Shown: positions 4,939-11,130 of the stretch, in pieces
Numbering within the stretch: the first letter of the stretch is position 1
Layout: the number at the start of each line of letters is the position of its first letter
Assembly: GCF_038025025.1 (NCBI RefSeq)
Contig: NW_027117339.1
Coordinates: forward strand, 1,860,001-1,924,000
Source of the DNA: Phyllosticta citribraziliensis
Lineage: Eukaryota
Direction: 5' to 3'
DNA: 64,000 bases
Program-made: the position numbers and the translations under genes
Notes under the pieces: model-generated
The model's database searches: none
Told to the model about the DNA's origin: nothing
The model's input: the letters and a program-made list of their open reading frames with translations, nothing else

Positions 4939-7688
4939 CTATTTTGCAGAACGCGCGCTGCTGACGCCACTGCCGCCATTGCTCATGATGCTAGGGATTG
5001 CATATGTCCCAGGAGCATTGTGCTGAGATGGCACCATCGGTGGCGTTGTCCGATTGTTCTGTGGACCACCCATGAACTTTTGCTGCGGTGGAAGTGACGC
5101 CGGCGGAGGAGGCTTGGGAGGAAGATGCGAGGGCGTCCCCCACTTCGCAATACTGCTTTGGCCGCCCATCGAGGCAGGCTTGGCACCGGGCAAAGGCGCC
5201 GCAGACACAGGTTGAGGCAACGGATGAGAAATCCCCTGATTCGGAATGCCTGTCTTCATGAAGGCAGGATTCGGTGGCTGGCGGATGCTGTTGAACTGCG
5301 GTTGCGGCGCTGGCTGGCCAGGTCTCCCTTGCTGATGCATGCCCATGTAGCCGGGGTAGCCAACCATGTTGGGAGCAACAGAGGCCATCTGAGGAGACTG
5401 TGCAGGCATATTGTAGCCAGGCGCTCCGCGCATGCCGGGCACAAAGCTGGGAACAAAAGCTTGGCTTTGGGGATTGAATTGTTGCCTGTTGAAGCTGCCC
5501 GGAAGAGGATGCTGGTTGCGGTTATTCCCAAAAGAAGGATTTGGGAGCTGCCCGTACGCATAGCTTTGGCCAGCAGACATGGGTCGGTCGTTAAAGCCTT
5601 GTGGAAACTGGTACGGCATCTGGACATTTACTTGCGGCCACGGCTGGTTGACTCCCTGAGACTGAGGCCTGTATCCATCTGGATGGCCCGCTAGCGGAAC
5701 ACTTGACATCCTGGGAGTCACTTTGGTGTTGTTGTTCTGCTGGAAAGACATCCGCTGCTGGAAGTCGGAGGAAATGTCGTAGTTGACGGGCATGGGTGCC
5801 CCAAACGGCGCTGGGTTGATCGACCCTGTGGGCGGTGAAGCAAACTGTGGAAGCTGCCAGGAATATTGGTGCTGAGCTTCTTGTTGCACCATGACTGGAA
5901 AACCTGTTTGGCCCTGAAAGGGAGAGGAGACCGGTGGGTTCACGTTCGTCTGAGGCGCCATGCTATTCACGGGCCCGTAGTACATGGGCTGAGCGCCGTT
6001 TGAGTAACCAGGGCCGCCGTATTGGGGAGGAAAGTACGGGCTGAACTGAGATCTGGCCTCAAAGCCGTCATCATCGTTGTTGCGCGGCTTCTTCTTGTTC
6101 TTTCGTCCTGCAGCAGAGCTGGAGCGGGACATGTCCTTGCCCTCGTTGTCCTTGGCCAAATCACCAAGGTCTCCATCCTCGGCACTGCCAAAAATGCGTT
6201 GGCGGGCTTCTTTGTACTTGGCCTCGCGTTCTTCCCTAGTCAGCTTTCGAGGTCCTTGGCCTGCATCGCTGCCACTATCTCCTCCCACTTCGGAAGTGGT
6301 CTTCGAAGGCCCGTCAGAGTTGGCAGTGGTGTTGGTCCCCGAGGGAGGCTTTCCATCCTCTCGACGCATGATTTTGCGAGCTGGTACCATGATTGGAGGC
6401 GTCTCGGGGCCTGAGGACAGTGCACTTGGAAGACCCGATAGGGGCGGAGGCCTGGGTCGATGTCAACGGGTGGTCACGAAAAAGGTAGCTTCTCAACCCA
6501 CATTCGACTGTATGAAGTCTTGGTAATTTTGACCGCGCTTGTAACTGGGTCAACGACATGACCAAGGAGATAATAGTCAGCAAATCGATGTGCAAGCATT
6601 CTGTAGAATGCATTGCAATTAGGAACATCGAGTTCTTTCTCTCTGTGATTCAGTCAGCAAAAAGGCACTGTCAGCGTCATTTGCCCGGAGACGTACTCTG
6701 TGTTTCGCAAGAAATCAAGCACGTCTTGTTCTAGCTTGAGGACAAACAATCTATCTCTGGGGGATTGGAGCGCTTCCAACAGCTTCTCGTCTGGCATTGG
6801 CTGCGGCTGAGAAACGCCATCATTCTCTTGAATGGAGCCGAGCGACAGGGGACTGGGTCTGTTGACCTCGTTACTGTTTGAAGTCTGCGCCATGCGTGCC
6901 GGAAGAATTCCACGGTGCGACGTGGCTGAGATTTCGTTCAATTGGTCCCGGAAAGCACGACCGGCCCCAGTGTCCGAGCCGACTCGAGAGCCTGGAGCTA
7001 CCGAGTCTGGAGGAGAAAAAACATCCTCTCTATCTTCCTCGACCGCCCGTATGCTTGCGCTGTCGTCGGGACGAATGCTCTCTTTTTCATCTAGAGCGAA
7101 GGTCGTTCCAGACGCGACGCTCTTACCATCGAGGCTTGGAGGCTTGACCGAACTGTTTGACGAGGAGACTTGTGTAGCGTTGTCGTCAGAGACTACGGGT
7201 CTGGCGGTGCCCGCCGCTGGCCGCAATACTTGCCCAACCGTAGGACCATGGATTGTGCCATTTCGGATATGAGCTTCGGTTGACGGCTCGTGGCCGTCCG
7301 GGGAGGGTGCACGATGGCAATCCCCATTGCTCTCTCCGTTTTCCATGGGACCGTCGGTCAAGGGTGCGCCTGCATTTTCCGGCGAAGTCAGAGGCTTTTG
7401 GAGGATGACGGGAACCTGAGGAGAGTTTGCGCTTTTGGGATTGGTGGTTGTCTCTTTTGTATTCTGGGGATGATAGGCTGAAGCAGCGACCTAAGAAGCA
7501 TTAGCATCATCATCCCTGCCAGTGGGCGTGTTGAAAGAATCGTTTGGGATGGCCAAAATTGACAGTGTGGGGTACACGGGGGCTGCGCAGGATGTTGCAA
7601 AACGCAAATGGGAGAGATGGAGGCGAACCTTTGCAAACGATGGCCTCAGACCCTGGGTTTCGCTGACAGCGGGGGCCTGGGAGGACAT
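4939..7688 (-). CDS. R3H + SUZ domain RNA-binding protein with Q/P/N-rich low-complexity tail (exons 7688-7629, 7490-6697, 6642-6502, 6451-4939)
   Basis: LLEALQSPRDRLFVLKLEQD, then NAFYRMLAHRFADYYLL (R-x3-H) in exon 3, then the SUZ core LTREEREAKYKEARQRIFG. Three canonical introns keep the frame. Confidence 0.9.
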
Positions 7689-8520
7689 TCTCTGGCAAGG
7701 CGGAGCCAATGGCAGTGGACGGTAGAATGACAGTAGAATAGAAGGCGGCCGTCGATGTAGTACGAAGTGTTCGGTGGGGTGGGCGCGCGCTCAAAGCCGG
7801 TAGAGCTTGCGAAGTAAAGTGAAAATGTCGGAAGCCAAGTTTTGATTTCAGGAACCGGATTGCTCAAGGAAAGTCGTGAAGGCCAGAACCGTAGGGCTGG
7901 ACATGGTGGTGTGTCGAAGGTGAGGGCTCAAAAGGTCGACGGTGATTTCATCGCGGGTGCAACAGGGCGGTTGGGTGGGCGCACGCTGCTCGTCGGGTGG
8001 GTCCTTTTAGAGCGCAAGGCTTGAAGGGAGTCAGGGAGCCGGGCGCGGGGGACTGGCTGGCGATCGGACCGGAAGGACGAGCAAAGCGCAGATGGGCCAG
8101 AGCAGGACAAGACCGACAGCCGGAGGAGGTCGACTGAGAGACGGTGAGGATGAAGCAATTGGCAGGCCGTGACAGAGGGTGCAAACGAGACGACGTCTGG
8201 GCGGCCACAGAAGAGGAAGCAGAACAAGCGCACCTGAGGTCGCGCGGTTGACCATCGGTGAAACTCTTGCTCCGACGCCGACGGGACTGAGGCAGGTGGT
8301 GCTGGTGCTGGTGCTGGGTGCCCAGAGATGCCTCAGGTTGCAGTGGGAACCGGAAACCATCATCTGCGCCTTCCTTCGCACGCTAATCCTCAACACCTCG
8401 CACCCGGCCTCTCTCTACTTCGTCCCACCTGACTCACTCGACAAACCAACTCTCCTCAGTCTCTGCCGTCCAATTTCTGTCGCCTTCGCTTCATCCACTC
8501 CCGCAGACGCTACAGCTTGC

Positions 8521-9527
8521 ATGTATCGTGGTCCCTCATCACACGCCGGCCGTTCAAAGGCTGCGCCCTCGACAACCTGCCAGAAATGCCTGAAGAAAGA
8601 TATGCTGTTCCCTCTCTCTCTATCTGCCACTGCTGACCCTTCAGAACGCCATTACAGCTATGAGTGCAAAGTCACCACCCAAGAGAGGCCATACCTCGCC
8701 CGCCCTTCCCGGACCCAGCAGCTCTTCAACCCAAAGCTGATGCCTCAGCTGACAAGCGACGTACCCAACGACCTCCTTCGCAGGCAAGTCCGCCGCATGT
8801 TTTCATCTGCTCGATCTAACACACCAGCAGAAAGGGTGTCGCCGATGAAGTCCTCGCCAAACAGTCCGAAGAACGCGGCCGCAAGCACGCGCGCGATGAC
8901 GACCACGGTGCGCCTCCTCCGCGGACGCGTTCGCGCTCAGAGTCATCGTTCTCTTCTGTCTCGACCGTGTCTACAAACCGCTCCCCCACCCGCTCTCCAT
9001 TTCCACATCAACGCGGCACAAATCCTTCCGGCCACCGGGCCCACTCCCCGCCGTCTGACGCGCGGAAGCGTCGCCGACGTTCAGTGAGCTCGTCGCCAGA
9101 CCGAAATGCTTCCGACAGACCGAAAGAGCGCAATACCAGGAGAAGACGCAGTTCGTACAGCCCAGCCCAGCGTGGCCGGCGCAGAAGCAGGTCATTCTTG
9201 TCAAACAATCGCGATCGTTCGGCAAGCGCGACTAGGGAACAAAGCGTCGACCATGAAATGGACAGATCCCCGTCGCCCTACAGCAGAAGAAAGAGAACTT
9301 CGAGGCGAAGCCCAGATAGGAGTCCTGCGGGGAGGGCACCTAGGATGCGCAGCCCTCCCCGATATCCTAACCGGGACTTCGACAGAAACATGGACGGTGT
9401 TGCAGAGAGGCCATCTCAATTTTCTCCGGCCCCTCGTGGCTCTCCTCCAGCAAGTACCCGTGAGCGAAGTCTCAGCCCTTACAGCAAGCGCCTGGCCTTG
9501 ACTCAAACCATGAATGTGGGTCACTGA
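8521..9527 (+). CDS. Zinc-knuckle (CCHC) protein with RS-rich tail, SREK1IP1/ZCCHC10-like (exons 8521-8599, 8648-8783, 8831-9527)
   Basis: Spliced product reads CQKCLKKGHYSYEC..QERPYLARPSRTQQL..LLRRKGVADEVLAKQSEERGRK, followed by RS/SP repeats and RERSLSPYSKRLALTQ. Needs one AT-AC and one GC-AG intron. Confidence 0.88.
8600..8647 (+). other. Predicted AT-AC intron with U2-type signals (48 nt, in frame)
   Basis: Starts ATATGC, has a pyrimidine tract, branch site GCTGAC at 8632-8637, ends AAC. Removal restores C-x2-C-x4-H-x4-C. Confidence 0.75.
8784..8830 (+). other. GC-AG intron with CAGCAG tandem acceptor
   Basis: AG|GCAAGT donor, CTAAC branch, CAGCAG end. Joins the 8521 frame to the 8967-9527 frame. 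Confidence 0.85.
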
Positions 9528-10161
9528 GGCTGCTAATCTCTCAATCCGATCTGAAAGACTCGTCTTATTCTAGACGGCGCGATGATGCATTCTGTGGATT
9601 CGGGTAGGCATTTGGTGGCCTGTGGCCGTCATTTATGGATAGCAAAGGCGTTGGAAAGACGGGCTTTGTTTTTTGAGGCGCGCATCACGGTGAACATTGT
9701 ATTCCGGCCCTGTGGAAAGGCCTTTTGGGTAGACGTGCCGCTTCACCCCTCCATGATACCCAAGAACCCTAGTATAGAAACCTACTCCGCAAGACGGACG
9801 CCTTTCATCCCACTTATTTGCGCTTGTATCCACATGCAGACGATCATCTCTCGCAGAGTGCCGGCGTACCATGATTTGGAACATTGTCTGGTTCCTGTAA
9901 AAACCTCTTGCAACAGTGTTTCTGTGCATTAGCATAAATCAATCACTCAACCCTCAGACCACCGGGCTATACTGTTGTAGACACAGCCCTCCAAATTGTA
10001 AATTCAAGGACACGCCCTCCTTCCTCATTTCCCACCTGCTCGCAGTACCCTGAATCCAAAACCCACATCCCTTGGAATGCGCCGAACCCATGCTTTTCGT
10101 CAAATCACTTGTACCAATATGCCGAAACGCCCCGGTTGTCCTGAAGCAAGCGTGAATGTGT

Positions 10162-10773
10162 TTACGCCAGCTCGTCGTCGTCCTTCTCCCTCTCTCGCTC
10201 AGCCTCTTCTTCTCTCTCGCGCACATGCATAGCCTCGACCAAGTTGACTCCTTCCATGCCCACTTCTTGACCATCGCCAGAGCTCGTGCCGTCGCGCTCT
10301 GTAGCCCTTGACTTTGCCTCCCCTTGACTCTTCTCAATGCGCTCCCGCACCAGTCTTGCAATCGCATTCTCAGTCCTTACATTGAGTACTTCCAGCTTCT
10401 TTTCCAGATCGCGCTTGAGATCCCAGTTCGGTTTCTTGGGTTGCAGCTTGAAAAGGTCCAGCGGCTTGTCGTCGCCCTCCTCCTCTGCTTCCTTCCGTGT
10501 CCGCTCTTCGAGCTCCTGCGCTTGCTTCTCCAACGTCTTCTGGCCCTCGGCGGGATTTAGCTCGAATCCTAGCTTGGGGGCCTTGGTAGTTGCGTCATAG
10601 TTGCGGCCTGAAGTGTAGGTCGAGGTGGCATCGAATGTTTGCTGATAATCAGAGGGCGCGCCGTCTTCCATGTCTTGATCTTCGTCAGGTTGTTTTCGCT
10701 TCAGCGATTTGAGCTTCGCAAGGCGAGCCTTGCGCTCCTCGGCCGCCGCGCTGAGGGAGGCTTGAGATGACAT
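10162..10773 (-). CDS. cwf18: Pre-mRNA splicing factor Cwf18 (CCDC12 family)
   Basis: ERKARLAKLKSLKRK, SGRNYD and LDLFKLQPKKPNWDLKRDLEKKLEVLNVRTENAIARLVRERI. Intronless 203-aa ORF. Confidence 0.92.
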   Translation of the reverse strand: MSSQASLSAAAEERKARLAKLKSLKRKQPDEDQDMEDGAPSDYQQTFDATSTYTSGRNYDATTKAPKLGFELNPAEGQKTLEKQAQELEERTRKEAEEEGDDKPLDLFKLQPKKPNWDLKRDLEKKLEVLNVRTENAIARLVRERIEKSQGEAKSRATERDGTSSGDGQEVGMEGVNLVEAMHVREREEEAEREREKDDDELA

Positions 10774-11130
10774 TGCCCCAACGGTGTAATTGTTTGATGT
10801 TGGATTGATGTTGGCGCTGCGGAGAGTGGTAGTGGGAAAAGTAGACTGATGGCGAGCTCCGTATGCGATTGTGGTGGGCCAGTGTATGCTGTATGCAAGG
10901 GCGTGGAGATGCGCCAGTGGGCATTTGAGAGCTAGAAGGAGTTTTCGTGAACGTGGGCGTCAACGATGCAAAGCGGTTGGTGAAGCCGTGAAGTTGTTGC
11001 TCTGCGGGTAGCGGAGACGGCGGCGGAGGTTACGCGCCAAAAATTCCGCCGTTGGCTCTTCCGTTCCGCTCAGACACCTTCATCACTCGCTTTTCTGCGA
11101 GACTGCGACATGACCGCAACGCTGACCTAG

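Follow-up and report, generated by a model that had tools for sequence, protein, structure and literature searches.

An AT-AC intron of probable U2 dependence in a zinc-knuckle gene of filamentous ascomycetes

Gene structure and the evidence for splicing

We analysed a 64-kilobase (kb) stretch of DNA (contig NW_027117339.1, positions 1,860,001 to 1,924,000; hereafter the window, numbered from its first letter), whose sequence points to a Phyllosticta-like fungus (Dothideomycetes, Botryosphaeriales). A gene on its forward strand encodes a zinc-knuckle protein with a tail rich in arginine and serine. The gene has two introns, neither of which is GT-AG. Our subject is the first of these, 48 nucleotides (nt) that begin with AT and end with AC. 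The gene comprises the following parts, in which a slash marks a splice site.

8409..8520, + strand: 5' untranslated part of the messenger RNA (mRNA); apparent 5' end taken from RNA contigs X2 (8409) and X1 (8410)
8521..8599, + strand: coding part of exon 1, MYRGPSSHAGRSKAAPSTTCQKCLKK plus G, the first base of a Gly codon; ends AAG/
8600..8647, + strand: intron 1, 48 nt, AT-AC, phase 1; junction 8599^8648 in 4 of 4 runs
8648..8783, + strand: exon 2, GC of the Gly codon, HYSYECKVTTQERPYLARPSRTQQLFNPKLMPQLTSDVPNDLLR, AG of the next codon; placed by contig junctions
8784..8830, + strand: intron 2, 47 nt, GC-AG, phase 2; GCAAGT at the start, CTAAC at 8816-8820, CAG at the end
8831..9527, + strand: coding part of exon 3, Arg/Ser-rich tail that closes with the conserved RERSLSPYSKRLALTQTMNVGH; TGA stop codon at 9525-9527

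The spliced coding sequence of 912 nt yields a protein of 303 residues, 294 of them identical to those of the Phyllosticta citrichinensis protein P0006; for the exon 3 product alone the figure is 223 of 231. An intact C-x2-C-x4-H-x4-C knuckle, CQKCLKKGHYSYEC, starts at residue 20. Behind it stands the motif RPSRTQQL, of which RPSRTQQ is invariant in alignments of homologues, and the tail consists of 21% R and 18% S with 18 RS/SR dipeptides. The Pfam family zf-CCHC_3 (PF13917) matches P0006 with E 1.4e-18. Its match to the unspliced translation of the window gene falls into two parts (E 2.1e-14; 53.6 bits against a curated cut-off of 27), covering residues 44-71. Judged by its sequence, the product belongs to this family as a ZCCHC10-like zinc-knuckle, Arg/Ser-rich protein. 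Aspergillus homologues bear the source name 'zinc finger CCHC-type containing 10', and such source names, with the shared Pfam family, are what suggest orthology to human ZCCHC10. Single-sequence and profile searches found no solved structure related to the protein.

An earlier note, made from the letters of the window alone, had proposed that an AT-AC intron splits the zinc knuckle, and its description of the site is accurate. The intron starts with ATATGC (8600-8605), carries a branch-site-like GCTGAC at 8632-8637 whose A (8636) lies 11 nt from the intron end, and passes a CAG at 8642-8644 before ending in AAC (8645-8647). Exon 1 ends AAG/, as is normal ahead of a 5' splice site of U2 type. 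If nothing is spliced out, the frame that opens with the ATG at 8521 runs without a stop from MYRGPSSHAGRSKAAPSTTCQKCLKK through DMLFPLSLSATADPSER into HYSYECKVTTQERPYLARPSRTQQLFNPKL, and the knuckle is interrupted as CQKCLKK-DMLFPLSLSATADPSER-HYSYEC. Removal of exactly 8600-8647 rebuilds the Gly codon as G+GC and restores the knuckle. The note had also held that no suitably placed GT donor exists. A single GT lies within 8600-8647, at 8607, and when we paired all GT and GC donors from 8560 to 8660 with every AG up to 8760, none of the 75 pairs that leave the frame open restored C-x2-C-x4-H-x4-C.

Assembled public sequence data contain the spliced form. Nine runs matched positions 8350-9650, and we aligned contigs of four: X1 and X2 from organism A (two studies, 0.84 of sampled words), X3 from organism B, and X5, a plant metagenome declared as an RNA sequencing (RNA-seq) library. 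All four runs, with one contig each, contain the junction 8599^8648 that the note had singled out, with 48 bases skipped, ends AT..AC, no base fitting both sides and a shorter side of 132 bases. The X1 and X2 contigs are identical to the window; those of X3 and X5 carry many substitutions and so derive from relatives. None of the contigs of these runs was reported to join at the AG at 8643-8644, which the note had named as the competing site; the RNA junction thus shows that the intervening CAG is bypassed. No intron-bearing contig turned up in the four runs, although contigs drop rare forms.

Each of the four contigs is also joined across intron 2, listed as 8779^8827 with 47 bases skipped and 4 ambiguous bases. 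Among five equivalent placements, only 8783^8831 gives both GC..AG ends and the orthologue sequence LLRRKGVADE. The contigs are therefore cDNA-like, since they lack both introns and no intron-bearing contig came from these runs. Adapter-like loose letters at the 5' end of the X1 contig (8410) hint that the mRNA begins there; a contig, however, is a weak guide to where transcripts truly start. Together these data confirm that 8600-8647 is a real intron, spliced out of the mRNA.

Conservation of the intron and its mis-annotation

Orthologous introns were collected from metagenome contigs scanned with two exon 2 peptide patterns. The scan gave 502 matches, of which 420 were confirmed relatives, and the best 80 loci were kept. 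Because the ranking of loci used the unspliced translation as tblastn query, the sample is biased towards introns that are stop-free and a multiple of three in length. An intron lies at exactly the window's position in 50 of the 80 loci; the other 30 have no intron and encode LK[KR]G in 12 nt. Together with the window, the 50 intron-bearing loci provide 33 distinct introns of 48-59 nt.

The termini of these introns are nearly invariant, as the note had anticipated when it spoke of conserved ends around a variable middle. AT starts all 33 and AC ends 32; one intron (1/33, L023/L026) ends in AA, and GT..AG occurs in none (0/33). G at +5 is present in 33/33, T at +6 in 30/33, and 30/33 fit AT[AG]NGT, while +3 (A/G) and +4 (T/A/G/C) vary. 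The commonest 5' sites are ATATGT (14), ATAAGT (7), ATAGGT, ATGAGT and ATACGT (3 each), so that they read as the usual fungal GTATGT, GTAAGT and GTGAGT with A at +1. At the other end, 31 of 32 introns place the A of a CTRAY branch motif 10-12 nt before the 3' terminus (standard deviation 0.95). The corresponding distance in intron 2 is mostly 10-17 nt across these genes (standard deviation 2.4), and a Trichoderma survey gives 16.5 +/- 7 nt (PMC4324775). An AG intervenes between branch motif and AC end in 14 of the 32.

The AT-AA intron was seen at two loci (L023:1041-1116 and L026:320-395), with an ATACGT start and a TTTAA end. Three database models (P0038, P0134, P0173) have S before HYSYEC, which matches an AA 3' end. 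Intron 2 is GT-AG in 31 of 32 distinct orthologous sequences; the GC donor occurs in the window only and is thus specific to its lineage.

Protein databases hold the same signature in translated form. A retained AT-AC intron of this phase, read as peptide, begins with D (from G/AT) and ends with R (from C/GN). In a homologue search with the N-terminal part of the unspliced translation, the 120 homologues listed of 449 hits comprised 70 with a canonical knuckle, 47 with an insert at the same place (45 D...R, 1 D...S, 1 D...F) and 3 with an otherwise disrupted knuckle. We then pooled 377 homologue models from the best 120-150 proteins per search, which is not a random sample, as an intron-containing query favours stop-free introns divisible by three. 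They sort as follows.

Canonical knuckle: 223 of 377
In-frame D...R insert: 73 of 377
Read-through from intron 1 into exon 2, HYSYEC preceded by R: 56 of 377
S before HYSYEC (AA 3' end): 3 of 377
G...G insert, or G before HYSYEC: 11 of 377
D...F insert: 1 of 377
Unclassified: 10 of 377

The intron is thus translated as peptide in 129 of 377 models (73 D...R plus 56 run-through), which bears out the expectation that gene finders would miss it. Among the 56 run-through models, 21 show exon 1 in another frame, as ...RYV or ...KIC (G/ATATGT read out of frame). Gene finders restricted to GT/GC-AG often read intron 1 as peptide or truncate the gene. The result is a broken zinc knuckle or a shortened protein, as in models from Podospora anserina, Penicillium, Colletotrichum and Phyllosticta, and fungal gene finders should permit AT-AC. 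One model with a G...G insert or a G before HYSYEC, P0224, is filed as a hypothetical protein of Quercus suber. It has the fungal Arg/Ser-rich tail and a short, fungal-type intron read through, and its source is probably fungal DNA carried in the oak assembly.

The interior of the intron is non-coding. Against P. citriasiana P0003, a manual count finds that only 6 of 17 insert residues match, while the exon residues on either side are almost all identical; apart from the residues at its two ends, the insert peptide is not conserved.

D...R inserts occur in models from Phyllosticta citriasiana, Lasiodiplodia, Lepidopterella and Venturia, and from Glutinoglossum (Geoglossomycetes) and Cirrosporium (Xylobotryomycetes). 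They also occur in Penicillium and Aspergillus californicus, Emergomyces and Cladophialophora, Cudoniella and Tricladium, and Podospora, Chaetomium, Colletotrichum and Akanthomyces, which we take to represent Eurotiomycetes, Leotiomycetes and Sordariomycetes. Judged by these models, the AT-AC state is spread over most of leotiomyceta.

Splicing machinery and the origin of the AT-AC ends

We consider it very probable that 8600-8647 is a constitutively spliced, U2-dependent ('type II') AT-AC intron of the zinc-knuckle gene. U2-type AT-AC introns are those in which AT-AC ends accompany a major-type 5' site (PMC1557818), and AAG/ATATGC is major-type save for the A at +1. Minor introns and their small nuclear RNAs (snRNAs) are reported absent from Ascomycota and Dikarya (PMC2846911, PMC10639083), and an engineered /AT-AC/ intron is spliced in yeast (Parker and Siliciano 1993, cited in PMC5029451). 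From the signals and this literature we infer that the major spliceosome does the work. An Rfam search gave no match within the 64-kb window, a result that does not extend to the remaining genome.

In such a mechanism, U1 and U6 would recognise ATATGC as a fungal GTATGY-type 5' site with A replacing G at +1, and U2 would pair with the GCTGAC branch site. In the second step the +1 A would pair with the terminal C, as G does with G in ordinary introns. This A-C pairing, together with the distance from the branch, would select AAC (11 nt behind the branch A) over CAG (8 nt behind). A change at one end alone would leave a mismatched, poorly spliced pair, and lineages would mostly keep both ends or lose the intron. 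Poor splicing after a single-end change is likely why the A/C pair is conserved while the interior drifts.

Several points weigh against this reading. The absence of U11, U12, U4atac and U6atac genes from the organism is taken from the literature, dependence on U1, U2, U4 and U6 is drawn from signals and literature, and the branch point is a predicted one. The tight spacing of 10-12 nt between branch and intron end resembles that of U12-type introns too. The pair does not appear to be absolutely locked, as 7 models have in-frame G...G inserts and 4 have G before HYSYEC; this GT..AG signature occurs in some lineages, including Aureobasidium inside Dothideomycetes, and was deduced from protein models, not DNA. 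On the RNA side, X1 and X2 are only guessed to be RNA and may stem from the window's own strain. Contigs are blind to minor isoforms, so that 'constitutive' means no retained contig among four runs.

Four alternatives were weighed against constitutive U2-dependent splicing. That there is no intron, and that the junction is an assembly error, reverse-transcriptase template switching or a processed DNA copy, has a probability close to nil. X3, like X1 and X2, is only guessed to be RNA, and contigs rather than reads were compared; but the junction recurs in four runs from four studies and at least three organisms, one library being declared RNA-seq. The lack of shared bases across the junction makes template switching unlikely, intron 2 is missing from these contigs too, the intron-bearing contigs that a DNA run would give did not turn up, and orthologue proteins require exactly 8599^8648. 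We also think it unlikely that intron 1 is a regulated switch whose retention gives a full-length protein with a disabled knuckle. The note had raised this, and part of its case stands: an intron kept in the transcript leaves the frame uninterrupted both in the window and in P. citriasiana, where the annotated protein includes 17 intron-derived residues, and 13 of the 33 orthologous introns are stop-free and a multiple of three, compared with about 9-11% of fungal introns (PMC7072748). As a conserved device the switch fares poorly. Although the sample favours such introns, 20 of the 33 are not of this kind: 8 have lengths indivisible by three (49, 50, 53, 56, 59 nt), and 12 of the 25 divisible ones contain stops. 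Exons 1 and 2 differ in frame in at least 22 database models, and the poor conservation of the insert peptide and the lack of a retained contig point the same way. A conserved finger-less isoform is thus not supported; a species-specific one may exist.

The other two alternatives concern the minor spliceosome. It is very improbable that 8600-8647 is itself a U12-type AT-AC intron. Its ends are AT-AC, and its short, constant branch-to-end distance is typical of the U12 class as well. When the U12-type features (a /RTATCCTT 5' site, and a TCCTTAAC branch 10-15 nt from the 3' end) are compared, however, the spacing fits and the sequences do not. With the motifs as quoted in PMC3033335 and PMC5029451, none of the 33 introns comes within 1 mismatch of ATATCCTT or TCCTTAAC, in keeping with the note's statement that U12 signals are absent. 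The nearest fit to ATATCCTT has 2 mismatches (one intron; the others have 3-6), and all fits to TCCTTAAC have 2-4. The 5' site varies at +3 and +4 and keeps the G at +5 and T at +6 of the U2 type, and the reported lack of minor introns and snRNAs in the host group also speaks against a U12-type intron. A subtler proposal, that the ends are the relic of an ancestral U12 intron taken over when Dikarya lost minor splicing, also strikes us as improbable. It would account for the AT-AC ends and the U12-like branch spacing, and nematodes provide documented cases of U12 introns converted to U2 at conserved positions (PMC2846911). But positions +3 to +6 are U2-like in all AT-AC copies, and three Pezizomycete-like models (P0227, P0244, P0156) have G...G inserts, the mark of a GT..AG intron at the same site. 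ZCCHC10 is absent from one supplementary file of PMC11347168, a paper on intron taxonomy (the contents of that file were not identified), and a literature search for ZCCHC10 with U12 returned nothing relevant.

We read a G...G insert as a retained GT..AG intron of the same phase. The nearest named relatives of P0227 and P0244 are Morchella (62%), Tuber (51%) and other Pezizomycetes, which stand outside leotiomyceta; P0156 shares with them an 'LKLG' knuckle and downstream motifs. Two further G...G models, P0229 and P0224, have no close named relative among the matches found. G before HYSYEC occurs in two Aureobasidium strains (P0260, P0270) and one species of Dothideomycetidae. The presence of GT...AG at one site in both Pezizomycete-like and Aureobasidium models favours descent from a U2 intron over a U12 relic. 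Going by these models, the intron position probably dates back to the origin of Pezizomycotina, and both end states exist. The simplest reading is that AT-AC, which would arise from GT-AG by two substitutions, came from an ordinary U2 GT-AG intron, with both ends changed on the leotiomyceta stem and the change undone in a few lineages; the opposite direction, from AT-AC to GT-AG, may also apply.

Loss of the intron appears to be the other way out. Intron 1 is gone and intron 2 kept at eight loci (L028, L029, L048, L065, L067, L071, L074, L078), and both introns are absent from 19 of the 63 loci that the patterns could place (L024, L036 and L044 among them), where they look to have been lost together. 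Several loci of the latter kind lie on contigs of 20-135 kb, and their best-matching named proteins are of Pleosporales type. Escapes from AT-AC thus take the form of whole-intron loss (30/80 loci) or, in a few lineages, of GT..AG; precise intron loss seems the commoner of the two.

Known AT-AC introns and the neighbouring genes

The class to which we assign intron 1 is already known and very rare: five species together yielded 24 U2-type AT-AC introns out of about 610,000 (PMC1557818). The best comparison is with the U2-type AT-AC introns of human SCN4A and SCN5A, which likewise place AT/AC ends on a major-type site (/ATAAGT-like), and the borders of U2-type AT-AC introns are likewise kept over long evolutionary distances (PMC1557818). 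The intron described here differs in being a fungal intron of 48-59 nt, with a CTRAY branch 10-12 nt from its end, in many fungal classes. Its host group is reported to lack the minor spliceosome, and its snRNA dependence is deduced.

Two yeast systems are close in setting. The engineered A1/C-last intron shows that /AT...AC/ can be spliced in a fungus without a minor spliceosome, and that the end bases act as a pair (PMC5029451). Natural AT-AC junctions of yeast RPL30 occur likewise in a fungus without a minor spliceosome, in about 1-2% of transcripts and at a 5' site unlike U2-type AT sites (PMC5029451), whereas the AT-AC junction here is present in all contigs examined and is required for the protein. 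U12-type AT-AC introns share the terminal dinucleotides and the short, constant branch-to-3'-end spacing; unlike them, the present intron lacks ATATCCTT and TCCTTAAC, and the literature describes its host clade as lacking the machinery.

Fungal surveys do count AT-AC introns (PMC7072748). In Trichoderma longibrachiatum they account for 69 of 14305 junctions (PMC4324775); they also figure among the non-canonical pairs of Fusarium graminearum (PMC3577648) and have been 'hypothesized' in xylanase genes (PMC1557818). These belong to the same rare class in filamentous fungi. None of the survey passages available to us names the zinc-knuckle gene or reports one AT-AC intron conserved across fungal classes. 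Our literature searches, whose coverage stopped short of subscription journals and some supplements, likewise found no description of intron 1 or of any AT-AC intron conserved across fungal classes. What is new is a deeply conserved member of the class in this gene, notable for the depth of its conservation, the bypassed AG and the scale of its mis-annotation. It is a natural counterpart of the yeast A1/C-last rescue, in which a compensated pair has been kept in most filamentous-ascomycete classes and the remainder has changed. It also offers a substrate for asking how distance and end pairing lead the major spliceosome of a fungus to a 3' site other than AG.

The gene next door encodes a splicing factor, cwf18 (PF08315, E 1.9e-43), at 10162-10959 on the - strand, about 640 nt downstream and tail to tail with the zinc-knuckle gene. 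A convergent cwf18 homologue lies downstream in at least 27 of the 80 metagenome loci, as seen in 1.5-kb flanks (L005, L023, L024, L049, L071 and L075 among them). In one proteomic study, the catalytic C complex was the sole spliceosomal complex with spectra of human ZCCHC10 (PMC3923134). These two observations prompt, and do not demonstrate, the idea that the AT-AC ends make the intron a sensor. The second step would hinge on the uncommon A-C pair of ends, shortly preceded by a decoy CAG, and ZCCHC10-like output would be tied to second-step capacity in an autoregulatory loop conserved across most filamentous ascomycetes. We regard this as a long shot.

On the other side of the gene, the window contains a Ser/Pro-rich open frame of 278 codons at 6654-7490 on the - strand. 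It has no Pfam match, and its sequence reads like part of a larger, intron-containing gene.

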